Notes under the pieces: generated by a model
What the model saw: only the letters and a program-made list of their open reading frames with translations
Databases searched by the model: none
Told to the model about the DNA's origin: nothing
Translations under genes and position numbers: made by a program
From: Gemmatimonadales bacterium
Lineage (GTDB): Bacteria; Gemmatimonadota; Gemmatimonadetes; Gemmatimonadales; GWC2-71-9
Reading direction: 5' to 3'
Assembly (NCBI GenBank): GCA_039794085.1
Contig: JBDIWC010000019.1
Span: 1 to 64,000 of the forward strand
Length of the DNA stretch: 64,000 bases
Part shown: piece after piece, positions 7,755 through 46,833 of the stretch
How positions within the stretch are numbered: the first letter of the stretch is position 1
Layout: each line of letters opens with the position of its first letter

Positions 7755-9512
7755 ATGAGTCCCATCGACTGGATCCTCGCCGCCGGTCTGCTCCTGGTGA
7801 GCTTCCTCCCGGCGCTCGCCGTGCGCCGCCGAGCCGCCTCGAGCACCGCGGAGTTCTTCACGTCGGGGCGGGCGGCCCCCTGGTGGCTCATCGGAGTGTC
7901 GATGGTGGCCACCACCTTCAGCACCGACACGCCGAACCTGGTCACCAACCTGGTGCGGGAAGGCGGAGTGGCCGCCAACTGGGCCTGGTGGGCCTTCCTC
8001 CTCACCGGAATGGCCACGGTCTTCTTCTACGCTCGGCTCTGGCGTCGCTCCGGGGTCCTCACCGATCTCGAGTTCTACGAACTGCGATACAGCGGCGCCC
8101 CGGCCCGCGCGGTGCGCGGCTTCCGGGCGGTCTATCTCGGGCTGATGTTCAACGTGGTCATCCTCGCCTCGGTCAACCTGGCCGCGATCAAGATCGCCAA
8201 TGTCCTGTTCGGCTGGCCCAGCGGAGTGACGCTCGCGGTCGGCGCGGTGGTGGCGGTCGCCGTCGCGTCCGTGGCGGGTCTCTGGGGTGTGCTGGTGACC
8301 GACTTCCTCCAGTTCGGCATCGCGATGACCGGCTCGGTGGTGGCGGCGGTCTTTGCCCTCCGGCAGCCGGCCGTGGGTGGACTGGACGGGCTCATCGCGC
8401 GGGTGGACCCGGCGATGCTCTCCCTCCTCCCTCCGACCGATGACTGGTCGCTTCTGGTGACGGTGCTCATCATTCCGCTCGCGGTGCAGTGGTGGGCTGT
8501 CTGGTACCCGGGATCGGAGCCGGGCGGAGGGAGCTACGTGGCCCAGCGGATGCTCGCCGCCCGCAGCGAGCGCGATGCCTTCCAGGGCACTCTCTTCTTC
8601 ACGGTGGCCCACTACGCGGTGCGCCCCTGGCCCTGGATCCTGGTGGCGCTCGCCTCGACCCTGGTCTATCCCGATCTGGCCGGCATGGCCCGTGAGCTCC
8701 CCTGGGTCGACTCCCGCCTCATCGGCCACGACATGGCCTATCCCGCCATGCTCCGCGTTCTCCCCGCCGGATGGCTCGGCCTCATGGTGGCGGGACTCGT
8801 CGCGGCCTACGTCTCCACCATCACCACCCAGCTCAACTGGGGGAGCTCCTACCTGGTGCACGACGGGTACCGGCGCTTCGTGGCACCCGACCGGACCGAG
8901 GAGCATTACGTGCGGATGGGCCGGTTGACCACGGTGGCGCTCATGCTGGTGGCGGCCCTCGTCACCCTGGTCCTGGACACGGCGCGGGAGACGTTCGACC
9001 TTCTCCTCTCGGTCGGGGCCGGCACCGGGCTGCTCTACCTGCTCCGCTGGTTCTGGTGGCGGATCAATGCCTGGAGCGAGATCACCGCCATGGTCGTGTC
9101 CTTTCTCCTGGCGCTCGGCTTCTTCGTGGCCGGCAAGATGGGGCACGCGCTCCCATCCCACGTGACGCTTCTCCTGTCGGTGGGCATCACCACGGTGGTC
9201 TGGGTGGGAGTCACCCTGTTCACCCGGCCGGCCGACGAGGAGACCCTGGACCGGTTCTACCGGTTGATCCGCCCCGCGGGTCCAGGCTGGGCTCCGGTCC
9301 GCACCCGCCTCCCCGGTGTAATCCCGACGGACGGAATCGCCAGTTCGCTCCTCGGGTGGGGGCTGGGGTGCCTTTTCGTCTACAGCGCCCTGTTTGCCAC
9401 GGGGAGCCTCCTGTATGGACGAATGGAGACGGGTGGCGTGCTCGCGGCGGTTGCGCTGGCGAGCGGGATCGGTTTGGTGCGGGTAATGAGGAGGGTAGGC
9501 GATAGGCGGTAG
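7755..9512 (+). CDS. Sodium:solute symporter (SSS) family protein
   Basis: 'PWWLIGVSMVATTFSTDTP', 'GGGSYVAQRMLAA', 'YLLRWFWWRINAWSEI'; many transmembrane helices. Confidence 0.93.
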   Translation: MSPIDWILAAGLLLVSFLPALAVRRRAASSTAEFFTSGRAAPWWLIGVSMVATTFSTDTPNLVTNLVREGGVAANWAWWAFLLTGMATVFFYARLWRRSGVLTDLEFYELRYSGAPARAVRGFRAVYLGLMFNVVILASVNLAAIKIANVLFGWPSGVTLAVGAVVAVAVASVAGLWGVLVTDFLQFGIAMTGSVVAAVFALRQPAVGGLDGLIARVDPAMLSLLPPTDDWSLLVTVLIIPLAVQWWAVWYPGSEPGGGSYVAQRMLAARSERDAFQGTLFFTVAHYAVRPWPWILVALASTLVYPDLAGMARELPWVDSRLIGHDMAYPAMLRVLPAGWLGLMVAGLVAAYVSTITTQLNWGSSYLVHDGYRRFVAPDRTEEHYVRMGRLTTVALMLVAALVTLVLDTARETFDLLLSVGAGTGLLYLLRWFWWRINAWSEITAMVVSFLLALGFFVAGKMGHALPSHVTLLLSVGITTVVWVGVTLFTRPADEETLDRFYRLIRPAGPGWAPVRTRLPGVIPTDGIASSLLGWGLGCLFVYSALFATGSLLYGRMETGGVLAAVALASGIGLVRVMRRVGDRR

Positions 9513-9728
9513 GCGGTAGGCGGTAAACGATACGGTAGGGAATAATAGGGAGTAGGGAGTCGGGAATGGCGAGCAGGGAATTGGGAACAGCAAATGCCGT
9601 CATTGCGAGGAGGCGAAGCCGACGACGCAATCTCGTGAGCCCATGCCGGCCCGGGGAGACGTCACGTCGGCCTTCATGCCGACACTGGACCTCGGCGCAC
9701 GCCGGGGTCCATATGTTGGGGTCTCACG

Positions 9729-11683
9729 GTAGAGTAGGCGCCAGGTTGCCCTGGCGCCCCTCGTCAAACCGGACGGGCGGATTTCCCGCATCCGGCTTCC
9801 CCGGCAGATTCACCGGTCGGGCTATCGGGGAGTCGCGCGACTACAGCAGTTCCAGACCCAGACGGTGAGTCAGAAAGCCGTAGTAACTCATCCCTGTCGG
9901 TGGTCGAAAGGGTCGCTGGCTCCGACGTCTCAGATGCTTCGTCAACCGCGCCACAGTAAACGCGTTCACAGCCCGGTAGGCTCGGCGAGGGCGGCCGACG
10001 CTGAAGTACTGCTTCCAGCCCCGGTGCTGCCGGTTCACCTGCCCGACCAGCTCAATGATCGGCACGAACGAGTTCTCCTTGTCGATCAGCTCCCGCAATC
10101 TCTCCTTGCGGCGGGCCACCGCTTGGTCCGACGGCATGACCGTGAAATAGCGCCGATTCCGTCCAAAGCGGTCCCACTCATACCCGAAGGTGTAGCCCAC
10201 AAAATCGAGATGGGCCTCTCCGTCCGGCGTGAGGGTGATCACCCGGGTCTTCTTCCGGTTGATCGTCAGTGCAAACCTCCCCTCCAAGGTCCTCTCCACC
10301 CAGGCCGTGATGCGCCTCCCGACGGACCGCGCTAGGATCACGAAGTCGTCGGCGTAGCGGACCAGGCGGGCATGCGCCCAGTGCCCCGGACCGCTCGCGC
10401 GGTGGAATTGGACATCGAACCAGTGGAGGTACAGGTTGGCCAGCAGGGGCGAGATGACTCCGCCCTGCGGCGTCCCCTGCGTCGGCCGACGACGCGTCGG
10501 CCGATCATTCTCGTCCCGATCCTCGACGACCGCGTGGAGCCAGAGCCGAATCAGGTGCAGGACCGACCGGTCCGCCACCCGACGCGCGACGCCCTTCATC
10601 AGTTTGTCGTGCGGAATCGTGTCGAAATAGGCTTGCAGATCCGCGTCATAAATGGCCGTGTACCCCGCCCGCAGATGCTGCTCGATCTCCCGAAGCGCAT
10701 CGTGCGCGTTGCGCCCGGGTCGGTAGCCATAAGAGCAATCCAGGAAATCTGCCTCGAAAATCGGCTCCAGGATCAGCAGCGCCGCCGTCTGCACCACCCG
10801 GTCTCGGACCGTGGGGATGCCCAGCGGACGCCGCCTACCGTCGGGTTTCGGAATGTACACGCGTCGCACCGCCTGAGGCGTATAGCACTTCTCCTTCAGC
10901 TCCCGGTGCAGGGCATCCACCAGAGCCGTCGGACCCCCGGGTGAGGCTGTGATCTGTGCGATCGTCACCCCGTCCACCCCTGGTGTGCCCCCGTTGCGGG
11001 CCACCAGGACCCAGGCCGCCTCCAGGACGTCTCGCCGGTAGATCCGGTCATACAGCGCATAAAACCGGAACTCCGGCTCCCGCTTCGCCTTCAAGTACAG
11101 CTTCTGTCTCAACGTGAAGAGTTTCTCGGGTAGGCGCTTCCCATTGACCGCAAAGGCCTTGGGCAGCTCCGGCCGGTCTCCCGTAGTGGCGTCGTTTTCG
11201 CGCAAGCGGCCCTCCACGTGTCTGACTCCGCGTTCTGCCGGCAGGGGTCCTTCGCTCCACGGGCATTACCCCGCTTCCTCGCTACTACGACCCCCTCCGA
11301 TTCCCAGCCGTGCGGCCCGCAGTGGTTATGGATTCCCACCGGAGCCACGGGGCACGACCCCCGCACGCCGGGTCTCCCAGGTTCCTCGACCTTTCTCTCG
11401 ATGCGCGCCGTCCCCTACCACCCCGGAGAGCCGAGTGACTGCACATGCCTGTGACTTCGTCACCCGTGCGGGCTTCACCATCTTCGGCAGGCTGGCCGCT
11501 CTCATCTGTGCGTTTCGAGGCCGAAACGGGTTCGCTTGCGCTACGGCTCACATCGTCCGCCTCCCGGGGCTTCGACGGCCCAGTGACCTGGAACCCCCGC
11601 CCGGTCGGCTACATGTCTCACAGGCAGTTTACATGGCGAGCTCCTTTCAGCTCACAAGAAAGGCCAGGCTTGGCCTGGCGCAC
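9729..11683 (-). mobile_element. Complete group II intron (~1955 nt), AGC-triad domain V, non-IIC
   Basis: 5' end GTGCGCC at 11683; DV GGAAGCCGGATGCGGGAAATCCGCCCGTCCGGTTTG; DVI GGCGCCAGG-GCAA-CCTGGCGCC then TACTCTAC ending at 9729; the flanks rejoin into an intact repeat. Confidence 0.92.
9841..11217 (-). CDS. ltrA: Group II intron reverse transcriptase/maturase (no endonuclease domain)
   Basis: 'NGGTPGVDG', '[21 protein letters not shown]', '[14 protein letters not shown]', 'RYADDF', X domain; 458 aa with no HNH. Confidence 0.96.
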
Positions 11684-11728
11684 CGAAGACGCGAAGGCAA
11701 CGGGTAGTAGCCTCGTCTTGGAGGGACC

Positions 11729-11983
11729 ATGCGCGATGCACGCGATATAGAGGGAGAGGAGCCGGACGATTTGACACCGGACGAGGACATGACGGACACG
11801 GAGGCGTGGATTGCGTGTCCCTACTGTGGTGTGGAGGTGGAGCTGGTGCTGGATCCGGGCGGAGGTTCGGTGCAGCGCTATGTGGAGGACTGCGAGGTGT
11901 GCTGTCGCCCCTGGCACCTGACGGTGCGGTGGGACGCCTCGGGGGCCGCGCAGGTGGAGGCCCGGACCGAGGCGGACGCGTAG
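11729..11983 (+). CDS. CPXCG-motif cysteine-rich protein
   Basis: 'CPYCG...QRYVEDCEVCCRP'. Confidence 0.88.
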   Translation: MRDARDIEGEEPDDLTPDEDMTDTEAWIACPYCGVEVELVLDPGGGSVQRYVEDCEVCCRPWHLTVRWDASGAAQVEARTEADA

Positions 11984-11997
11984 GCGCGTCGGGCGGA

Positions 11998-12338
11998 CAT
12001 TCCGAGGCCATCATCGCGAGGACCCGCAGGGGTCCGTGGCGATCTCGTGAGCGAGCGTTCGCAAGGACTCACACGAAGGCACGAAGGCAACGGGCGGTGG
12101 CCTCGTCATGGAGCGTCACCCCGGCGCACGCCGGGGTCCATGTGTGGGGGTCTCACGCGAAGACGCGAAGGACGCGAAGATTCTTGTGGAGAGTCTCACG
12201 CGGAGACGCGGAGGCGCGGAGGGTTGTGGTGCTTGCGATGGCGGGCGGGCCATCGGTGTCGTGAGTGCCAATCGGAGCGTCACCCCGGCGCACGCCGGGG
12301 TCCACTTCACACTTCGAATTTCGAACTTCACACTTCCC
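11998..12338. repeat. Mosaic repeat cluster (CCCCGGCG-CA-CGCCGGGG hairpins, CGCGAAGA octamers, GAAGTT heptamers)
   Basis: Hairpins at 12111-12140 and 12274-12304; tctcacgcgaagacgcgaagg at 12151. Confidence 0.85.
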
Positions 12339-12438
12339 GAAGGGCCCCGTGTCAGGGAGATGACGTTATCGGGGTGATCAGTGCAGGAAAGTGTGGGTGA
12401 GGCGTCCCTTCCGGTATCACTGCGAGGGGGATCCCTGT

Positions 12439-13251
12439 ATGTTCCGCTGGCTGGAGGGTCGGTGTGGTCCGAGAATGGTGCTGCTACTTGCGTGCGCCTG
12501 CGCTTGGCCGTGGACGGTTGCCGAGGCCCAGGCAGGCCGGGACCCCACCGCTACCCTGGTGGTCCAGGTGGTGGACACCGCCGAGGCACCGGTGCCCCTC
12601 GCGGATGTCATCCTCCGTCGCGCGGGGATGCGGGGGACGAGTGGGGCCACCGGCCGGGTCACGCTCCGAAACATCCCTTCCGGGCTCGATACCCTGCTGG
12701 TCCGGCGGCTCGGCTTCGACCCACTGATAGTGGCAGTACGGTTCTTCGCGGGGGACACGCTCTCGGTCGAGGCGGTGCTCGACGCCCGGCTGGTGGCGCT
12801 GGAGGAGATTGAGGTCATCGGCCGGCCGGGGCTCTCCACCTTTGAGCGCCGGATGAAGAATGCGATCTTTTCGCCGCCCAACTCGTTCTACACGCCGGAG
12901 GCGCTCGACACCTTCCCGCCGGAGATCCACCTGCGGGAAATTCTCATGCGGTCTGGTATCCTGCGCCGACCAGTCATCCTCGGTGGTCCCGGGCGGCAGG
13001 TGACCACCCGAACCCGTCTGACCTGCGCCAAGGATCCCCTGGCTAGCCAGCATGGGAAACCGTATCCGGCGGTGATCATTCTGCTGAACGGGATTGCCTA
13101 CCCCGACCCCGACGACGATTTCTTCGAGATGAAGCTGCGCCGGGCCCGGATCAAGGCGCTGGAGATCTACCGGAATCCGATGGAGATGCCCAACGAGTTT
13201 TCGCCGGAAGTGATGGACAATGGTTGTGCGGTGGTGGTGTGGACGAAATAG
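12439..13251 (+). CDS. Secreted carboxypeptidase-regulatory-like domain protein with a TonB-plug-like C-terminus
   Basis: Signal peptide, 'VVDTAEAPVPLADV', 'VRRLGF', 'IKALEIYR', 'CAVVVWTK'; start codon uncertain. Confidence 0.7.
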   Translation: MFRWLEGRCGPRMVLLLACACAWPWTVAEAQAGRDPTATLVVQVVDTAEAPVPLADVILRRAGMRGTSGATGRVTLRNIPSGLDTLLVRRLGFDPLIVAVRFFAGDTLSVEAVLDARLVALEEIEVIGRPGLSTFERRMKNAIFSPPNSFYTPEALDTFPPEIHLREILMRSGILRRPVILGGPGRQVTTRTRLTCAKDPLASQHGKPYPAVIILLNGIAYPDPDDDFFEMKLRRARIKALEIYRNPMEMPNEFSPEVMDNGCAVVVWTK

Positions 13252-13284
13252 AAGTTCGAAGTTCGAAGTGTGAAGTTCGAAGGT

Positions 13285-13717
13285 TCACGCGAAGACGCGA
13301 AGGGCGCGAAGGTTCTTGTGGGGAGTCTCACGCGGAGACGCGGAGGCGCGGAGGGTGTCGGTCCGCGTGGTGGTTCCTGGATCGCACGGACACGCGTAGG
13401 GGACTCACACGAAGCCACGAAAGCACGAAGCACGCGGGGGCAGTCTCCGGAGCGTCACCCCGGCGCACGCCGGGGTCCATGTGTGGGGGTGTCACGCGAA
13501 GGCGCGAAGGGCGCGATGGTTCTTGTGGGGAGTCTCACGCGGAGGTGCGGAGGCGCGGAGGGTGTCGGTCCGCGTGGTGGTTCCTGGATCGTACGGACAC
13601 GCGTAGGGGACTCACACAAAGGTACGAAGGCACGAAGCACGCGGGGGCAGTCTCCAGAGCGTCACCCCGGCGCACGCCGGGGTCCATGTGTAGGGGTGTC
13701 ACGCGAAGGCGCGAAGG
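13285..13717. repeat. Tandem duplication of a 207-bp composite repeat unit
   Basis: tcacgcgaag recurs at 13285, 13492 and 13699 with near-identical intervening sequence. Confidence 0.92.
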
Positions 13718-13960
13718 CACTCCCTGCGTTCTTGCGCCCTTGCGTTGAATCTGTTGTCGGTGCACAACGTGAAGGGATCCGCGACGACGGGAAGTACGCC
13801 CGCGGAGTTCTCAGATCCCTCGCTTCGCTCGGGATGACTCCGAATTGCGGGACCCCACAAGCTCTCCTATGCCCGACTCCCAACTCCCTATTCCCGACTC
13901 CCAACTCCCTATTCCCGACTCCCTATTCCCTGACAGCCCCTATCGCCTATCGACTATCGC

Positions 13961-16126: not shown

Positions 16127-16519
16127 GATATCGTCGTGTACGAGTGGCGCCTTCCAATGGTTTCACTTTGAAGCGTAGTATGGTGACCCCTTGCAGTGGC
16201 ACCGCGCCACCGGACCGTCATCGCGAGGACCCCCGCAGGGGTCCGTGCCGATCTTGTGAGCGACCGTTCGCTGGGCTCCGGGATGGCTGGCCTTCCGACC
16301 GGAGTCCTGTCCCGGCGGGGCATCGGCATGAAGGCCCGCGTCGCCTCCGGAGCGTCACCCCGGCGCACGCCGGGGTCCATGTGTGGGGGTATCACGCGAA
16401 GACGCGAAGGCGCGAAGGCCATGAGCGCCGTGCCGTCATCGCGGGGACCCCGCAGGGGTCCGTGGCGAATCTCGTGGGCGACTTCTCCCCATCTGGTTTG
16501 GCCGCACGGGAAGAAATGA

Positions 16520-28617: not shown

Positions 28618-29140
28618 AGTTCGAAGTTCGAAGTTCGAAGTTTGAAGGGAGACGGACCTCTATCGGAGCGTCACCCCGGCGCACGCCGGGGTCCACTGGC
28701 CGGGTGATGCATGATGCAGGGGCGGCATCTCTTTCGCCGGTGGTGGGTGCAATGACTCACGCGAAGACGCGAAGTCGCGAAGGCAAGCGGGGCCTCGGCC
28801 TCTCTCGGAGCGTCACCCCGGCGGACGCCGGGGTCCATTGGCCGGGTGACGTAGGGGCGAAATACTTTCGCGAGGATGACTCACGCGAAGACGCGAACGG
28901 AAGTGTGAAGTTCGAAGTTTGAAGTTTGAAGGGAGACGGACCTCCCTCGGAGCGTCACCCCTGAAGTCAGGCACGTGATTGAGGAGAGGGATCGGGACAG
29001 GTGGAGGGGATGGGTCCCTACCGCCTGCCGCCCATCGCCTACCGCCTACGATGGCCGTCACCCCGGCGCACGCCGGGGTCCACTGGCTGTGTGATGCATG
29101 AAGCAGGGGCGGCATCTCTTTCGCCCGTGGCGGGTGCAAC
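28609..29140. repeat. Mosaic repeat cluster with internal duplications
   Basis: GAAGTT tract+gggagacggacctc at 28609 and 28900; ggggtccactgg..gcaggggcggcatctctttcgcc..gggtgcaa at 28687 and 29075. Confidence 0.85.
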
Positions 29141-38047: not shown

Positions 38048-40153
38048 ATGCTCAACAGAATCCTCCGCCCCCGATCCATTGCCGTCATCGGCGCCTCCCG
38101 CCGCCCCGGGACCATCGGCCACGAAACCGTCGCCAGTCTGATCCGCTGCGGCTTCGCCGGCGCCCTCTACCCGGTGAACCCCGACGCCGGCTCGATCTGC
38201 TCGGTCCCCGCCTTCCCGTCTGTCCGGGACCTCCCCGGCCCGGTCGATCTCGCGGTCGTCATCGTCCCCAAACAACATGTCCAGCCCGTCGTCGAACAGT
38301 GCGCGGCACTCGGCGTCGGCGGGCTCGTGATCATCTCGGCGGGGTTCCGCGAGGTCGGCGACGACGGGATCGAACGGGAACGGGTGCTGACCGAGTTCGT
38401 CCGGAGCCGCGGGATCCGTATGATAGGCCCCAACTGCATGGGCGTCTTGAATGTGGACCCCACCGTCTCCATGAACGCGACCTTTGCCCCGTCGATGCCA
38501 CCGTTCGGACGCGCCGCCTTCATGAGCCAGTCGGGCGCCATGGGCCTGAGTGTCCTCGACTACGCCCGCGAATACGGCATCGGCATCTCCCAGTTCGTGT
38601 CGATGGGGAACAAGGCCGACGTGAGCGGCAACGACCTCCTCCTCGCCTGGGAAAATGATCCCGGAGTCGACACCATCCTCATGTACGTGGAGAACTTCGG
38701 GAACCCCCGCAAATTCCTGGAAATCGCCTCCCGCGTCTCCCGCACCAAGCCGATCATCGTGGTGAAGTCGGGCCGCTCCCGCTCCGGGGCACGCGCCGCG
38801 TCGAGCCACACCGGGGCCCTCGCCGCGAGTGACACGGCGGTCGATGCGCTGCTCAACCAGGCCGGCGTCCTGCGAGCCGGAACGGTGGAGGAACTGTTCG
38901 ACCTGGCGATGGTCTTTGCCGGAACCCGCCGCCCCCGGGGGCGCCGGGTGGCGGTGGTGACCAATGCCGGAGGCCCCGGCATCCTCGCCGCCGATGCGCT
39001 CGAGACCCACGGCCTCGACATGGTGGAGCTGTCGCCGGAGACGGTGGAGGCGATCCGGCCCCTCTTTCCCGCCGAGGCCTCGGTAAGGAATCCGCTCGAC
39101 ATGATCGCCTCGGCGACACCGGCGGGGTACCGCGTGGCGATGCACGCCCTCCTGAACGACCCCGGGGTCGACGCCGTGGTCCCGATCTACATCCCGCCGC
39201 TCCGCGCCCAGCAGAAGGAGACGACCCGGGTGATCGCCGAGGTGGCCCTGGCCCACCCCGACAAACCGGTGCTGCCGGTGCTGATGGGATTGGAGGGTCT
39301 CCCGGCGGGCCGCGCCGAGCTGCACGAGGCGGGGCTTCCGGCGTTCATCTTTCCCGAATCGGCGGCCCGGGGCCTCGCGGCGCTCTGCCGCTGGCGGGAG
39401 TGGAGGGACCGGCCCCGGACCGAGGAGCCGCCGCTCGTGGTGGACCGGGAGCGCGCCCGCACCATTCTCGACCGGCACCACAGCGAGAACCCCGGCGTCA
39501 CCAAGCTCCCGGAGGACGCGGTGTTCGACCTGCTCGATGCCTACGGTGTCGCGACCATCAGGCGGGGCATCGCGCGTTCGGCTGACGAGGCGGCGGCGAT
39601 CGCCGAGGAGCTGGGTGGGCCGGTGGCGCTCAAGATCCTCTCCCCCGACATCGTCCACAAGACAGACGTGGGCGGCGTCCGGCTCGGCCTCCTCGGTCCC
39701 CAGGTGCGGGAAGGATTCGAGACGATGTACGCCGCCGTCACCCGGGCCCTGCCCGAGGCTCGGCTGGACGGCGTGATGGTGCAGCAGATGGCGGCCAAGG
39801 GGGGGGGGCGCGAGATGATCGTGGGGGTGACGCGGGAGGGATCCTTCGGCCCGCTCGTCATGTTCGGCCTGGGCGGCACCCTGGTGGAGGCGCTGGGAGA
39901 CGTGGTGTTTCGTCTCGCGCCGGTGGATGGGGTGGAGGCGAGGAGCATGGTGCACGGGATCCGCTCGATCCGCCTCCTCACCGGCATCCGCGGCGATCCG
40001 CCGGTCGATTTCGAGGCGCTGGAGGACGCGGTGCGCCGGATCGGGCAGTTGGCGTGGGACTTCCCGGAGATCGCGGAACTCGACGTGAACCCGCTGCTGG
40101 CGTATACCGACGGGGTGTTGGCCGTGGACGGACGGGTGATGGTGAACCCGTAG
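38048..40153 (+). CDS. Acetate--CoA ligase (ADP-forming) family, fused alpha/beta
   Basis: 'IAVIGAS', 'GPNCMG', 'SQSGA', 'SHTGALA', 'NPLDM', ATP-grasp 'HKTDVGGV', 'ELDVNPL'. Confidence 0.93.
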   Translation: MLNRILRPRSIAVIGASRRPGTIGHETVASLIRCGFAGALYPVNPDAGSICSVPAFPSVRDLPGPVDLAVVIVPKQHVQPVVEQCAALGVGGLVIISAGFREVGDDGIERERVLTEFVRSRGIRMIGPNCMGVLNVDPTVSMNATFAPSMPPFGRAAFMSQSGAMGLSVLDYAREYGIGISQFVSMGNKADVSGNDLLLAWENDPGVDTILMYVENFGNPRKFLEIASRVSRTKPIIVVKSGRSRSGARAASSHTGALAASDTAVDALLNQAGVLRAGTVEELFDLAMVFAGTRRPRGRRVAVVTNAGGPGILAADALETHGLDMVELSPETVEAIRPLFPAEASVRNPLDMIASATPAGYRVAMHALLNDPGVDAVVPIYIPPLRAQQKETTRVIAEVALAHPDKPVLPVLMGLEGLPAGRAELHEAGLPAFIFPESAARGLAALCRWREWRDRPRTEEPPLVVDRERARTILDRHHSENPGVTKLPEDAVFDLLDAYGVATIRRGIARSADEAAAIAEELGGPVALKILSPDIVHKTDVGGVRLGLLGPQVREGFETMYAAVTRALPEARLDGVMVQQMAAKGGGREMIVGVTREGSFGPLVMFGLGGTLVEALGDVVFRLAPVDGVEARSMVHGIRSIRLLTGIRGDPPVDFEALEDAVRRIGQLAWDFPEIAELDVNPLLAYTDGVLAVDGRVMVNP

Positions 40154-41033
40154 GGGCGACCCGTGGGCCGCCCTTCGTCGGGACCCAGTCCGTCATCGGG
40201 GTCATCCCGAGCGAAGCGAGGGATCTGAGAACGGCGCGGGTGTACTTCCCGTCGGGAGGACGGTTGAAGGGTGAGAAAAAAGCGCTCACGCGAAGACGCG
40301 GAGGCGCGGAGGGTGGGGCCCAACCGCCATCGGAGCGTCATCCCGAGTGAAACGAGGGATCTGAGAACGGTGAGGGTGTACTTCCCGTCGTCCGGTTCTC
40401 GGGGCTACCCCTCACAGGAAGTTCGAGATTTGAAGGGCTCACGCGGAGACGCGGACTGGAAGTGTGAAGTTCGAAGTGTGAAGTTTGAGGGAATGATGCT
40501 CCGACGTACACTTGGATCCCGACTTCCTCCTTCACACTTCCAACTTCGAACTTCCCGCCTGCGGATGCCTGGCGGCAGCGACTCGGAACGCGTCGCGGGA
40601 GCCGTCCAATTTGCGTCCTTGCGCCCTTGCGTTGAGGTTGTTCCTGGTGTGTGTCATGGGCAGGCAATCAGCACGTGCCTTCGTGCCTTCGTGTCTTCGT
40701 GTGAGTCCCTGCATACTCGGCCATGGCCCCGGCGTGCGCCGGGGTGACGTTCCAAGGTACGCTCGGGATCCCGATTGCCTCCGTCATGCTTCGCGTCTTC
40801 GCGTCTTCGCGTCTTCGCGTGAGTCCTCTCAGGGGTGACGTCGGATGTCAGGCTCCGATTCCTTCGTGTCTTCGTGTCTTCGTGCCTTCGTGTGAGTCCC
40901 TGCATGCTCGACCATGGACCCCGGCGTGCGCCGGGGTGACGCTCTGCTGTACGCTCGTGACCCCGAGCCCCTCCGCTCCTCCACGTGAGCGATTACACTT
41001 CATTTCGAACTTCAAACTTCGAACTTCAAACTT
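40150..41033. repeat. Mosaic repeat cluster
   Basis: GTAG REP (40150), gtcatcccgagcgaagcgagggatct (40201, 40338), inverted GAAGTT tracts, CCCCGGCG hairpins (40723, 40913), cttcgcgt/cttcgtgt octamers. Confidence 0.85.
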
Positions 41034-41046
41034 CCCCGAGGCACCC

Positions 41047-42210
41047 ATGAGCACCAACCGCAGGGACTTCCTCCGTCTCGCCGCCGCCGCGGGTGGCACT
41101 CTCGGCCTCGGCCTCCGTCCGTCCGCCGCCGTGGCCGCCCCGGGACCGCGCCCTCTCTCTGCCACAGCAGGATCGGCGCCGCGCAGGATCCGGTTGCTCA
41201 TCCTGGGGGGCACCGGCTTCATCGGTCCCCATCAGGTGCGCTACGCCGTGGAACGGGGCCACGAGGTCACCATCTTCAACCGGGGGAGCCATCCCGGAAT
41301 GTTCCCCGGTGTCGAGGAGCTCACCGGAGACCGTGACGCAAACCAACTCTCGGCCCTCCGCGGCCGGACCTGGGACGCCGTCATCGACAACTCGGCGTCC
41401 GGCGGCCGGGCGCCCGAATGGGTCCGCGACGCCGCGACCCTGCTCCGCGATTCCGTGAGCCAGTATCTCTTCATCTCCACCAGGTCCGTTTTCAGTGACC
41501 TGAGCATGGTGCCCGCCACGGTGGACGCACCGGTCATCACGCCGGAATCGGCCAACTGGCAACCGGGACAGACCCGGAGCTATGGACTCGCCAAGGCCGA
41601 GGCGGAAAAGCAGGCCCGGCTGATCTTCGGGAACCGGGCGACGATCGTGAGGCCGGGACTCATCGTCGGCCCCGGAGATGACACCGATCGCTTCACCTAC
41701 TGGCCGGTGCGCATCGAGCGGGGCGGGGAGATACTGGCCCCCGGCGATCCGGAGAACGACCGGATCCAGATCATCGACGTGCGCGATCTCTGTGAATGGG
41801 TGGTGCGGCTCTGCGAGGCCCGGACCTTCGGTACCTTCATGGGGATCGGTCCCCAGAACGGCCGCTCGATGGCCGAGTTTCTGTACGGAATCGCCGCGGT
41901 GACGTCGGCGCCGCTCACCTGGACCTGGGTGCCGCGCGAGTTTCTGGTGGAGCACGGGTTGAGGCCCTATCGGGAGTTGCCGGTGTGGCAGCCATCGGTG
42001 CGTCGCAATGCGGGGTTTGCGCGCTTCGATCTGACCCGCGAAGTGGCGGCGGGGCTCACCTTCCGCACCCTGGCGGAGACCGCGAGCGACACCCTCATAT
42101 TCCACCACTCCCGGCCCGCGGAGCGGCAGCAGAAGCTCGGCAACGCGGTGACGGCGGAGCGGGAGTCGGAGGTGCTGCGCGCGTGGCATGCCAGCCGTGT
42201 GGGCGAATAG
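41047..42210 (+). CDS. Tat-exported NAD-dependent epimerase/dehydratase (isoflavone reductase-like)
   Basis: 'TNRRDFL' Tat motif; 'ILGGTGFIG'; 'YGLAK'; 'RPGLIVGPGD.TDRFTYW'. Confidence 0.9.
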   Translation: MSTNRRDFLRLAAAAGGTLGLGLRPSAAVAAPGPRPLSATAGSAPRRIRLLILGGTGFIGPHQVRYAVERGHEVTIFNRGSHPGMFPGVEELTGDRDANQLSALRGRTWDAVIDNSASGGRAPEWVRDAATLLRDSVSQYLFISTRSVFSDLSMVPATVDAPVITPESANWQPGQTRSYGLAKAEAEKQARLIFGNRATIVRPGLIVGPGDDTDRFTYWPVRIERGGEILAPGDPENDRIQIIDVRDLCEWVVRLCEARTFGTFMGIGPQNGRSMAEFLYGIAAVTSAPLTWTWVPREFLVEHGLRPYRELPVWQPSVRRNAGFARFDLTREVAAGLTFRTLAETASDTLIFHHSRPAERQQKLGNAVTAERESEVLRAWHASRVGE

Positions 42211-42214
42211 GTCT

Positions 42215-42798
42215 GGAAGTTCGAAGAAGAGGGCTCACGCGAAGACGCGAAGGGAACGGAGGGGCACCACGGAGAACACGGAGGTCGCAGAGGGTCTCCG
42301 TGTGATGTCCGACGCACCACGCCTGGCGCGCCGCGATTGGGACTTGTTGTTGGGGGGTGGAAGGGCCCCTCTCCTTCCGGTGCCTTGGGCCGCAACGGGG
42401 AATGTGTCGTGGGACCCGTCCTTTTTTGCGTCCCTGCACCATTGCACCCTTGCGTTGATGTTGTTCCTGGTGTGTGTCATGGGCAGGCAATCAGCACGTT
42501 TCTTCGTGTCTTCGTGTCTTCGTGTGAGTCCCTGCATACTCGGCCATGGACCCCGGCGTTCGCCGGGGTGACGCTCCCGATGGCGTAAGGGGCTCCGATT
42601 CCCTTCGCGTCTTCGCGTCTTCGCGTGAGTCATTTGCATGCTCGGCCATGGACCCCGGCTCCCCGCTTTCGCGGGGACAAGGTTCGCCGGGGTGACGTTC
42701 TGCCACCTGCATGGGGCGCAGGGGTTGCCCACGCGGGCGAAGGTGCTTCGCGTGGGCGAAAGGTATTTCGCCCCTACACACTTCGAACTTCAGACTTC
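42215..42798. repeat. Mosaic repeat cluster
   Basis: Blocks shared with 40560-40940, 43817-44330 and 47870-48185; a hairpin nested inside a hairpin at 42648-42698. Confidence 0.85.
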
Positions 42799-43641
42799 TT
42801 ACGGCGTGCTCTTCCCCCAGAAGTCGGGGTCGGCGGCCACAAAATCCGCCGCGAGGTGGCTCAGGCGCGGATTGAACCGCATGAAGTGCGTGGTCACGTT
42901 GATGTAGCCCTCCGAGGCCAGGCCGGAAAACTTCTTCGCCACCTCCTCGGTCATGGCCTTGGCAACCGCTGCGGAGACGGGAGCTGTCGTGTCCATGTCC
43001 GCCATGCTCTTGAAGGGGACCCAGACCATGAAGGTGGGCCCGGGCATTCCCGCGACGACCTCATACGTGGCCCACGGGGCCTGGGCCTGCACCCCGGCCT
43101 TCTTTACCACATCGAGGTACGAGGTGGCGGCATCGGCAAAGGTGGCTTCCTTGCCGGGGCGCACCCGGAAGGTGATGATCTGGAAGTACCGCATGGTGGG
43201 AATGACGACACCCGTGTGATTGCTCAGCTCGGGGCGATACCGGGCCAGGATCCGCGAGGTTCCTTCGACATGTTCCCCATCAGCGGTCCAGAGCTGGTCG
43301 AGCTCGTCCCCGAGGCCGGGCGCGGTCTCGATGGCCTTGCCTGCCTCCTCCAGCGCGGCAAGCGAGGGATAGCCGCTCACATACCACGCCTCGCCCGGCC
43401 CGGTGTCCTGCACCATCCCCAGCCAGTGAATCGCCACGTTGGCCCGGGCAAAGGCCCGGGGCCACCCCGCCTCGGTGCGGAGGTGGGCCGCGCTGTGCCC
43501 CGGTTTGATGCTCTCGGTCAGGATCTCGAGAATGGTGGGGGGTGGGGGAGCCCCCTGGGCCCTGAGCGCCGGTGACGCCAGTGTGATGCCGGCGATCACG
43601 ACCAGCGCGGAACGACAAGAAACAGTCAGGCAGTTGCGCAT
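42799..43641 (-). CDS. Secreted hypothetical protein (tandem NIPSNAP/ABM-like folds)
   Basis: GGGAGG RBS, signal peptide, 'ESIKPG', 'FRVRPGK'. Confidence 0.7.
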   Translation of the reverse strand: MRNCLTVSCRSALVVIAGITLASPALRAQGAPPPPTILEILTESIKPGHSAAHLRTEAGWPRAFARANVAIHWLGMVQDTGPGEAWYVSGYPSLAALEEAGKAIETAPGLGDELDQLWTADGEHVEGTSRILARYRPELSNHTGVVIPTMRYFQIITFRVRPGKEATFADAATSYLDVVKKAGVQAQAPWATYEVVAGMPGPTFMVWVPFKSMADMDTTAPVSAAVAKAMTEEVAKKFSGLASEGYINVTTHFMRFNPRLSHLAADFVAADPDFWGKSTP

Positions 43642-43759
43642 GATGACTTCCTCCCGGTGTATGGTGTCCCCGGACTCGATCAAGGGGAGGCGAATATACG
43701 GCCACCACCCATGACCGCCAGTTTGGGCCGGACCATGAGAATGTCAACTGTGAGACATT

Positions 43760-44870
43760 GGGGGAAGTTTGAGGTTTTGAAGTTCGAAGTGTGAAGGAAG
43801 TGTGTGAAGTGTGAAGTCTCACGCGAAGACGCGAAGGCGCGAAGGAGTGTCGCGGGAGCCAGCAACCCTCCGTGTCCTCCGCGCCCTCCGTGGTTCAACG
43901 TGGGTTGGGGGAGGGGCACCAGGGAGAACACGGATGTCGCAGAGGGTCTCCGCGTGATTTCCGACGCACCACGCCTGGCGCGCCGCGATCCGGATTCTTG
44001 TTGGGGGGTGGAAGGGCCCCCCTCTTGCTGATGCCTGGCGGCAGCGACTCGGAACGCGTCGCGGGAGCCGTCCAATTTGTGTCCCTGTGCCTTCGCGTTG
44101 AGGCAGTTCCATGAACATCAAGATCCGGACGACGGGAAGTACACCGGCAACCTCCTCAGATCCCTCGTCACTCGGGATGACGCTCCGATGTACGCTCGGT
44201 CTCCCGATTGCCTTCGCGTCTTCGCGTCTTCGCGTGAGTCCTCTTGTTGGTAACGTTCCAAGGACATCCGGAATCCAGAGGGGTTCCCGCGAGGGTGAAA
44301 GTATTTCGCCCCTACTTCACACTTCCCCTTCGTGTCTTCGTGTCTTCGTGTGAGGCAGTTCCGCCTACATCACGGCCCGAACGACTGGAAGTACACCGGG
44401 TGCCTCCTCAGATCCCTCGTTTCACTCGGGATGACGCTCCGATGTGCGCTCGGTATCCCGATGTTGTTCACGTCTTCGCGTCTTCGCGTGAATCCTCTCC
44501 GGGGTGACGTCCGATCTCTGGGCTCCACCTTTCTTCGTGTCTTCGTGTCTTCGTGTGAGGCAGTTCCACGAACATCACGGCCCGGACGACGGGTTGTAGG
44601 GGCCCTTCGCGAACGGCCCGTTCTCCGCCGACCTCCTCAGATCCCTCGTTTCACTCGGGATGACGCCCCGAGGTACGCTCGGGATCCCGACCTCCTTCGT
44701 GTCTTCGTGTCTTCGTGTGAGTCCTTGCATGCTCGACCATGGACCCCGGCGTCCGCCGGGGTGACGTTCTGGTGTACCCACGGGATCCCGAGGGGGCACC
44801 CCCGAGGGCGAAAGCATTTCGCCCCTATTTCACACTTCACACTTCGAACTTCCAGCGGAGTGACGCCCCG
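43760..44870. repeat. 1.1-kb mosaic repeat cluster
   Basis: Three agatccctcgt..ctcgggatgac hairpins (44158, 44410, 44639), octamer tracts, CCCCGGCG hairpin at 44739, heptamer tracts at both ends in inverted orientation. Confidence 0.85.
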
Positions 44871-44871
44871 G

Positions 44872-45804
44872 TCAGGCCAGCGCCCCCAGACGCAGGCGGA
44901 GGGCGGGGAGCGACGGGAGCACCTCGGCTCCGGCGGCGAGAAGTTGCGGGGCACAGGAATCTGCCGCAGCACCCCCCACGAGGAGTGACACGGTCTCGGG
45001 GAGGAGGTGCCGCAGCCGGGAGAGTTCCGGGACGAGCTGAGGGTCATCATCCGGATAGACGATGCTGAGAACAACGGCCCGGGCCCCGACGGTCAGGGCC
45101 GCCCGCGCGATGTCCGCTGCGGGGAGATCCGCGCCGAGATAGAGGAGACGCCACCCCTCGCTCGCCGCCACGGCGGCGGAGAGCATGGCGCCGATCTCGT
45201 GCCGCTGTCCCTGTGGGGTGGCCACCACGGCCAGGGGTGCTCCGTTGCGGGACACAGCGGCCTCATGGACCCACCCCAACACGCTGCGAATCGCGGCGGT
45301 GGCCGCGTGCTCATGGGCCGTGCTCAGTGTCCCGGCATGCCACCGTTCCCCGACCCGGGCCAGCAGCGGAGCGATGAGATCCTCGATCAGGCTGCTCAAA
45401 TGCACCCGCATCGCCGCCCGGCGCAGGGTGGCCTCCAGGTCACCCATCGCGAAGCGCTCCACGGCCTCCCACGCGTGCCGCAGGTCGCTGCGGAGCCGCT
45501 CCGACTCGGCATCCGACGCCTGCCCCGCCGGGGGGAGCGCCTCCTGCTGGATGAGTGCCCGCAACTCCTCCACGGGAAGCGAGGCGACCTGACTGATGTT
45601 GTGGCCCCCCGCCGTGACCCGCTTCAGGAGTTCGAGACGCTCGATGTCGGCGTCGGAGTAGAGGCGCTGGCCGCCGCCAGATCGGTCTGGCTGAATCGCG
45701 TCATATCTCCGCTCCCAGGCCCGGAGGACATCGGGGCTGAGACCGGTGCGCTGGATCACCACCCTCATGGGGTGACGGGCGGCACTTGCCGATGAACGGT
45801 CCAT
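44872..45804 (-). CDS. MerR-family B12-binding photoreceptor regulator (CarH/LitR-like)
   Basis: 'LRAWERRY..GGQRLYS' HTH; W-x9-EH (WHAGTLSTAHEH); 'RHEIG'; 'YLGADLP'. Confidence 0.92.
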   Translation of the reverse strand: MDRSSASAARHPMRVVIQRTGLSPDVLRAWERRYDAIQPDRSGGGQRLYSDADIERLELLKRVTAGGHNISQVASLPVEELRALIQQEALPPAGQASDAESERLRSDLRHAWEAVERFAMGDLEATLRRAAMRVHLSSLIEDLIAPLLARVGERWHAGTLSTAHEHAATAAIRSVLGWVHEAAVSRNGAPLAVVATPQGQRHEIGAMLSAAVAASEGWRLLYLGADLPAADIARAALTVGARAVVLSIVYPDDDPQLVPELSRLRHLLPETVSLLVGGAAADSCAPQLLAAGAEVLPSLPALRLRLGALA

Positions 45805-46472: not shown

Positions 46473-46833
46473 CCTGGCGTTGCGGTGAGAGATGGGTGGG
46501 ACAGGGGTCGGCCCCGGGGGAGGGGGTCGGCCCTTGTGACATCGGTGCGTGGCGGGTGTGCAACACCACATAATGTCCTGTGTCATCCATACGACAAAAC
46601 CCGGTCCGGGCCGGTCGAGTGTCTGGACCAAGTACTTGTCTTGAAGAAGCTTACTCACTCCGCCGATGAACTTCCCCCGTGGTCCGTCGCTTGCGACACC
46701 GAGCCTTGTACCCGCTCCAGGGCTCCCCGGTCGTGAGGCCGGCTCGCAAAACTTCGAGTCTCTGCCAGGAACAGAAGAGACGGTCGAGTTGCCGGGTGTC
46801 GGACACGGAACCCACCTTGCTCAGGAGCACGCC

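Follow-up and report, generated by a model that had tools for sequence, protein, structure and literature searches.

The window, a stretch of 64,000 nucleotides from the genome of a Gemmatimonadales bacterium (assembly G000), carries a complete class F group II intron that sits exactly within a periodic intergenic repeat of the GxxExxY type. Retrohoming most probably brought it there, guided by some ten bases of its RNA that are predicted to pair with a single repeat unit. Most of its relatives, spread across many phyla, lie in their own host's version of the repeat and possess a matching guide, so that homing into the repeat arms of another, itself probably selfish, DNA element is the likely way in which the lineage persists.

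Structure of the intron and its insertion site

The intron was located on the minus strand and has a length of 1,955 nt, starting with GTGCG (5') and ending with CTCTAC (3') (Table 1). All hallmarks of group II introns were present, including the GUGYG start, the AY end, the domain V triad, the bulged A in domain VI and an open reading frame for a reverse transcriptase (RT)/maturase. Rfam models matched at 11411-11646 (RF02005, domains I-IV) and 9729-9800 (RF00029, domains V-VI). The encoded protein scored 359 bits against TIGR04416 (cut-off 300), and its closest homologues likewise comprise 458 aa. A domain profile search of this protein returned RVT_1 and GIIM only, so that it lacks an endonuclease domain, as had been stated in an earlier note on this DNA. 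The two-base bulge of domain V, which is usually AC, reads CC at 9776-9775 (minus strand) and AC in most homologues.

The intron lies antisense between two co-oriented genes, with a start codon 45 nt beyond it. According to the earlier note, removal of 9729-11683 rejoins an intact repeat motif; the resulting 22-mer was indeed found as an exact copy at 12150 and at 43816. At a distance from the intron, the window contains a c-di-GMP-I riboswitch aptamer at 46711-46796 (41.7 bits; cut-off 35).

Table 1. Coordinates of the intron, its parts, its neighbours and the copies of its target repeat in the window.
Feature	Position	Strand	Details
Group II intron, bacterial class F	9729-11683	-	Based on ends, Rfam, precise rejoining and empty orthologue in G001
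Intron-encoded RT/maturase	9841-11217	-	458 aa; YADD at residues 288-291; PF00078 (RVT_1) and PF08388 (GIIM)
Domains V and VI	9729-9800	-	AGC triad 9797-9795; 5-nt GAAAU loop 9785-9781; bulged branch A 9735
EBS1 (CGAAGA)	11481-11486	-	6/6 pairing with IBS1; preceded by delta C at 11487
EBS2 core (A)CGC	11510-11513	-	Pairs with exon bases next to IBS1
EBS3 (G)	11418	-	Pairs with first 3' exon base
Alpha-prime	11446-11454	-	Own stem-loop 3' of EBS1; 9 nt complementary to alpha 11618-11626 (sequence and alignment)
5' exon	11684-11697	-	Part of split octamer repeat (unit CTTCGCGT); IBS1 11684-11689, IBS2 11690-11692
3' exon	9721-9728	-	IBS3 (9728) and terminal head of split repeat
Left neighbour	7755-9512	+	Sodium:solute symporter family gene (PF00474)
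Right neighbour	11729-11983	+	Gene for small cysteine-rich CPXCG protein (PF14255)
Short palindrome of second repeat family	9687-9710		Joined to octamer repeat in recurring composite module
Empty paralogous target	12150-12171	+	Exact 22-mer
Empty target copy	13285-13302	+	Exact 18-mer
Empty target copy	16392-16417	+	Exact 18-mer
Two empty target copies	28757-28898	+	28757 exact 18-mer; 28881 one mismatch
Repeat cluster	40286-40822	both	Plus variant copy 40286 (one mismatch); four-unit minus array 40789-40822; exact 18-mer 40822 (-)
Repeat cluster	42235-42628	both	Empty copies; exact 18-mers 42235 (+) and 42628 (-)
Repeat cluster with CTTCGTGT variants	43816-44720	both	Empty copies 43816 (+), 44237 (-) and 44491 (-); exact 18-mers 43819 (+), 44237 (-) and 44491 (-)

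Class assignment

The earlier note had looked to an RT phylogeny for the class of the intron. In a FastTree phylogeny of 156 rows, which held no class C or E protein references and no So.us.I2, Ge.ur.I1, Pe.th.I2 or g4 proteins, the RT was placed in class F: it fell inside a clade of 79 rows (support 100), nested within a 119-row group (support 97) that included the class F references Ni.ha.I1 (g3) and B.th.I3 (g2; long branch), and was apart from the g1 and class D references. Further class F features were the RT and X domains without an endonuclease, an alpha-prime stem-loop with its tip near Id3 and a 5-nt domain V loop, the stem-loop and the loop length being common to classes E and F (PMC3753933). 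Compared by eye with the class E/F examples in the supplement of PMC7306698, the 5' end was closest to So.us.I2 and Ge.ur.I1; its first 80 nt were roughly four-fifths identical to So.us.I2, and none of 21 5' ends and 18 3' ends of class E introns came as close. So.us.I2, Ge.ur.I1 and Pe.th.I2 constitute the basal F clade (PMC3552965). The g2 marker FADD in RT5 is absent from this RT, which has YADD in its place, and was found in 4 rows of the 79-row clade.

The earlier note had ruled out class IIC on account of the missing endonuclease domain and the domain V triad. The AGC triad is present, but among the 48 introns parsed in a set of 61 homologues (see below) 37 have AGC and 11 have CGC, so that the triad argument is invalid. 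The exclusion of class IIC itself holds on other grounds, namely EBS2, the alpha-prime hairpin, the tree and the fact that no hairpin is required in the target.

The target repeat in the host genome

The unit CTTCGCGT, repeated with an 8-nt period in a short array that is closed by a fixed head, makes up the target repeat. Its 18-mer occurs in 46 exact copies on 18 contigs of G000 (about 0 expected under an order-5 Markov model), ten of which are on the window's own contig. None of the 46 copies lies within predicted coding sequence, which makes up about 81% of G000 according to a crude codon model. Perfect sites for the 10-base guide number 83 in G000, 72 being repeat-like and 9 located in genes predicted by the crude codon model, against a chance expectation of about 14. 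The empty sites listed in the earlier note were all recovered within a few bases of the positions given there, either as exact 18-mers or with one mismatch (Table 1).

The module composed of the palindrome and the octamer repeat recurs at about 12115, 13455, 13665 and 16354, and palindromes resembling the one at 9687-9710 flank a GIY-YIG gene on contig C38. Mosaics of repeat families fill the spacers at 9490-9720, 11990-12340, 13250-13960, 28620-29100, 40150-40900, 42180-42800 and 43690-44880. Their components are octamer arms, short palindromes as found beside GIY-YIG genes (contigs C38, C22 and C3) and 7-nt tandem repeats as found beside genes for four-helix-bundle proteins (PF05635; contigs C34, C18 and C23).

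G000, an assembly of 115 contigs, carries two introns. The ends of the second, related intron were found at C15:1-113 and C9:94254-94351 (94% and 91% identical, respectively), its middle part being unassembled, and were treated as one intron copy by assumption. Both ends sit in a 9-nt-period form of the target repeat.

Co-variation of guides and targets

Homologues were selected by RT similarity alone, yielding 103 loci with a best-segment identity of at least 47% (window included) and locus L074 (45%), which was added by hand. A usable 5' end was available for 73 loci (8 of them placed manually; L053 and L068 were left out), and after removal of 12 same-genome copies 61 homologues were retained. 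The nearest RT relatives by protein belong to the Gemmatimonadota; no close RT relative was found among 100 related genomes (best match 46%) or on plasmids (best match 47%). Non-canonical 5' ends (GAGCG, GTAAG, GTAAA, GTTGCG and others) were seen at L040, L078, L093, L095, L099, L128, L137, L139, L146 and L150.

The significance of EBS co-variation was assessed with 5,000 shuffles, in which kinship is ignored. The first five bases of EBS1 were fully paired with the target in 49 of the 61 homologues (shuffled mean 12.6, maximum 23), which together use 26 different EBS1 5-mers. The EBS2 trimer matched the exon in 44 of 61 cases (shuffled mean 13.7, maximum 24); a looser EBS2 score, based on the longest run, separated weakly (3.46 vs 3.01). 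EBS3, taken at a fixed offset, formed a Watson-Crick pair with the first base of the 3' exon in 44 of the 47 homologues with a 3' flank (shuffled mean 21.4, maximum 33). In the delta/delta-prime contact, C was combined with G in 45 of 47 cases (the other two read CGA/TGA, also with a central G), and all 14 cases with T had A. Where sister tips of the tree differ in their guides (L048/L135, L054/L061 and L070/L075), each one matches its own target. The targets were always found on the pyrimidine-rich strand and in a fixed register, with G at position -1 in 55 of 61 and G at position +2, which is outside the RNA guide, in 36 of 47.

With EBS1, EBS2 and EBS3 paired at the site in the window, the guide covers about one repeat unit plus two bases. 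Judging from the sequences compared, targeting looks like ordinary base pairing.

Host-matched variants and breadth of the preference

Four target patterns were counted genome-wide in five host genomes. The counts, in the same order of patterns, were 88/0/0/0 in G000, 0/199/0/0 in G123, 0/11/147/0 in G107 and 47/1/1/22 in G136; G113 scored 0 for all four, its own variant being outside the set. Each pattern was common in the host of its intron and missing from, or less frequent in, the other genomes; the exception is G136, which contains 47 matches to the variant of the window and whose intron uses the rarer one. Occupancy was low, with 3 intron copies in G123 and 3 in G107 compared with 199 and 147 pattern matches, respectively.

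The second intron of G000 and all close relatives with a readable flank reside in the same kind of repeat, and in most branches of the 79-row RT clade the targets share this repeat family, its strand and its register. Tandem periodicity in the 30 nt before the intron (at least 7/9) was detected in 25 of the 61 targets and in 92 of 855 control windows, a moderate separation. A family pattern, which was drawn up post hoc with the targets in view, matched 35 of 61 targets on the intron strand and 0 of 61 on the other strand, compared with 20 of 2,227 controls. The specialisation on a non-coding repeat family put forward in the earlier note is thus supported and extends to a cross-phylum clade in which the guide bases co-vary with the repeat variant. 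A survey of homologue flanks, also proposed there, agrees for the majority of loci, but about 13 of the 61 (by eye) lie in a different repeat or outside any evident one (L054, L061, L064, L070, L074, L076, L135, L137, L139, L141, L143, L147 and L181).

In the sister clade, where few boundaries could be set, several introns are located in repeats, some of them of other types; the class F g3 and g2 references do not look repeat-borne. Related introns in other repeat types were noted at L074, L091, L137, L139, L154, L085, L086, L109, L097, L098, L081 and L160, and repeat targeting may therefore be general in class F. We take these other repeats to be 7-nt tandem repeats, a palindromic REP-like motif, a 12-13-nt repeat and attC-like ends. 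Given the exceptions, the low occupancy and the variety in the sister clade, the preference is strong but not absolute.

The clade is large: at E <=1e-120, 7,647 protein clusters were retrieved among 8,000 scored, part of them outside this clade. Of the 120 best protein matches, most come from contigs whose size (about 1.5-2.5 kb) is that of the intron itself, as would be predicted for multi-copy or repeat-flanked elements; the clade is probably under-counted in genome bins.

The same distribution could tentatively be explained by survivor bias, an account that we regard as possible and yet clearly less probable than a true preference. Here, a short guide would insert at any match, copies in genes would be purged, and any abundant intergenic repeat would collect the survivors. 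Both readings have the chemistry in common and differ in degree only. A guide of only about 10 nt, the perfect sites in predicted genes, the low occupancy and the use of other repeat types by sub-lineages and by the sister clade (L074, L091, L137, L139 and L086) all agree with survivor bias. It is opposed by the sharing of one repeat family, strand and register across most of the clade, by the strand-specific enrichment of the post-hoc pattern, by the conserved G residues at -1 and, outside the guide, at +2, and by the observation that other, more abundant repeat families of G000 (two motifs have 119 copies each) are unused by either of its introns.

Relation of the repeat to GxxExxY genes

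Judging by sequence, the target repeat belongs to the type found on either side of GxxExxY nuclease genes and is scattered as gene-less copies. It fits the architecture of the GxxExxY arms on contigs C76 and C37, which consist of tandem 8-10-nt units with a terminal head in inverted bracketing. A profile search of G000 gave 8 PF13366 matches; its GxxExxY genes carry variants of the target that differ by one or two bases, and inverted arrays differing from the intron target at one to two bases lie on either side of the gene on C76. At L212, in another genome, the head and the period are the same as those of the target. None of the 46 exact 18-mers in the 115-contig assembly was within 700 nt of a GxxExxY gene. 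From this architecture we infer that the GxxExxY gene may spread the repeats.

The regions C76:1292-2020 and C37:10901-11722 of G000 contain a single intact GxxExxY gene between inverted arms. They also hold three truncated copies, in which both arms are retained with about the first 52 codons between them and which resemble non-autonomous derivatives. The first residues of the protein appear to be encoded by the left arm.

Among 28 GxxExxY loci from intron hosts, inverted matches between the upstream and downstream flanks were present in 17, compared with 9 of 150 cross pairs. When targets were compared with an independent library of the flanks of these 28 genes, 26 of 61 matched at 12 or more of 13 bases; for control windows taken at the same loci the figure was 14 of 855. 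The flanks of a host's own GxxExxY gene matched its target no better than those of other hosts (mean 8.96 vs 8.70 of 13 bases, one locus per host). A GxxExxY gene or pieces of it were detected within about 400 nt of the intron at four loci (L059, L073, L130 and L148), and at L073 and L130 the gene ends 68 and 24 nt, respectively, before the 5' splice site. The 6.3-kb contig of L059 is titled Klebsiella pneumoniae, and its intron and GxxExxY gene group with Acidobacteriota and Myxococcota; the contig is probably mis-binned.

A role of the GxxExxY nuclease in homing is possible, if unsupported. In its broadest form, such a role would make the intron a cross-phylum class F hyperparasite whose guide is retuned to the arm of each host, whose protein reads the fixed arm bases and which borrows nicks or strand opening from GxxExxY; we consider this improbable. 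A little further down the scale is the narrower proposal that the nuclease nicks or opens its own arms and thereby gives an endonuclease-less intron a single-stranded target or a primer. It is consistent with the RT lacking an endonuclease domain, with the fixed strand and register, and with the presence of PF13366 in 28 of 37 intron host genomes compared with 33 of 101 relatives of G000 (including the unpublished G016), although the comparison is loose and 9 of the 37 hosts, many of them incomplete assemblies, have no PF13366 match. Against it stand the priming at replication forks known for endonuclease-less introns (PMC4424553) and the use of unrelated targets by some lineages; a nuclease activity on the arms was not found in print. 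We rate this proposal as quite unlikely.

It is very unlikely that a DNA hairpin formed by the inverted arms is recognised, as in class C. An inverted copy of the target was found upstream in 16 of 50 homologues with 150 nt of flank, compared with 15 of 1,040 controls. A hairpin requirement was nevertheless rejected, as 34 of the 50, this site included, lack an inverted partner and the rebuilt sequence of this site forms no arm-to-arm hairpin; moreover, EBS2 is present and co-varies, and both the RNA ends and the tree indicate class F.

Empty sites and signs of mobility

In G001, a genome of the same genus, the orthologous symporter gene (92.6% identical) is followed by an uninterrupted repeat module without intron, and no RT match was obtained in this genome. 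The right flank in the window is devoid of about 130 nt that are present in G001. At L248 (G001:C65:50500-60409), the CPXCG gene and its neighbour appear duplicated, with a repeat module before each copy, which suggests duplication by recombination through the repeats.

In sequencing run X4, which belongs to another study, the intron-flanking genes are joined on one contig with no intron between them, and an intron of 99% identity is followed by different 3' sequence. In run X7, a 95% identical intron reached a depth of 31 and the neighbouring gene about 6, which hints weakly at multiple intron copies. Identical or near-identical introns with different flanks were found within single genomes (L039/L041, L065/L077/L088 and L054/L055/L056/L066). 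These empty and alternative sites suggest that the intron is mobile. At L141 and L029, the 3' end of one intron abuts a GTGCG start, which suggests tandem or nested introns.

The least likely of the alternatives is passive carriage of the intron inside a mobile repeat cassette: the repeat-filled spacer does vary between related genomes and a GxxExxY gene lies beside four intron loci, but G001 has the module at the same place without the intron, the open reading frame and RNA structure are intact, and the multi-copy genomes with different flanks largely refute it.

Proposed mechanism

Retrohoming into the repeat arms accordingly remains the preferred reading, and the observed pairing, co-variation, strand and register suggest the following course. 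The antisense intron transcript would splice, after which the intron RNA, together with its protein, would pair through EBS1, EBS2 and EBS3 with the pyrimidine-rich strand of a repeat arm and reverse-splice into it. Reverse splicing would occur into single-stranded DNA. No endonuclease would take part in the priming of cDNA synthesis, which would probably happen at replication forks, as is known for RmInt1 and has been reviewed for introns that lack an endonuclease (PMC4424553). Once the intron has reached a new host, point changes in EBS1, EBS2 and EBS3 would retune the guide, a process that may have happened repeatedly, and selection would keep guides that match an abundant non-coding repeat.

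Comparison with known systems

The intron resembles So.us.I2 and Ge.ur.I1 in having RT and X domains only, a length of about 1.95 kb, an alpha-prime in its own stem-loop and a 5-nt domain V loop. Both are listed as being in 'putative non-coding sequence' (Table S2 of PMC3552965; Toro and Martinez-Abarca 2013), and for Ge.ur.I1-1 the use of extra IBS1 copies 9 and 19 nt upstream was described (Nagy et al. 2013, PMC3753933). A periodic target would explain these extra copies and offer a simple reason for the odd alternative splice sites; from the published text, Ge.ur.I1-1 may itself lie in such a repeat. The difference is that the relevant parts of PMC3552965 and PMC3753933 describe no dispersed-repeat target, link to GxxExxY or clade-wide preference. 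Much of class F would gain a target where beforehand there was only 'putative non-coding sequence' (PMC3552965).

Class C introns, which target terminators and attC sites (PMC4424553, PMC7306698), likewise lack an endonuclease and have a lineage-wide preference for an abundant non-coding feature. However, they do not have EBS2 and depend on a DNA hairpin, whereas here EBS2 co-varies and a hairpin is not needed. RmInt1 (class D), whose target is ISRm2011-2 (PMC1802570), is similar in being endonuclease-less, in using a multi-copy mobile element as target and in its EBS1/2/3 pairing, but belongs to another clade, and its target is an insertion sequence rather than a short, host-variable non-coding repeat. 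Insertion sequences that target REPs (Tobes and Pareja 2006, PMC1525189) also hide in extragenic repeats, and a table in the same paper gives two of nine Pseudomonas putida group II introns as REP-associated. These insertion sequences use DNA transposases and classical REPs, in contrast to the RNA guide and the tandem 8-10-nt units tied to GxxExxY genes described here.

Neither class F introns that target these repeats nor the repeats themselves were found to be described in the literature searched, which was largely outside subscription journals. Three target specificities of bacterial group II introns are listed in a review (PMC4424553), namely homing sites, terminators and attC sites; the hyperparasite reading, if true, would represent a fourth mode of targeting and provide the first functional handle on the GxxExxY family. 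In any case, a testable link to this uncharacterised nuclease family is obtained, and dozens of natural guide-target pairs become available that should be useful for understanding retargeting after host jumps and for intron-based gene targeting with short guides. The chemistry would be that of ordinary class F retrohoming; what appears to be new is that a whole lineage prefers the repeat arms of an uncharacterised nuclease cassette and is tuned to each host's version of them.
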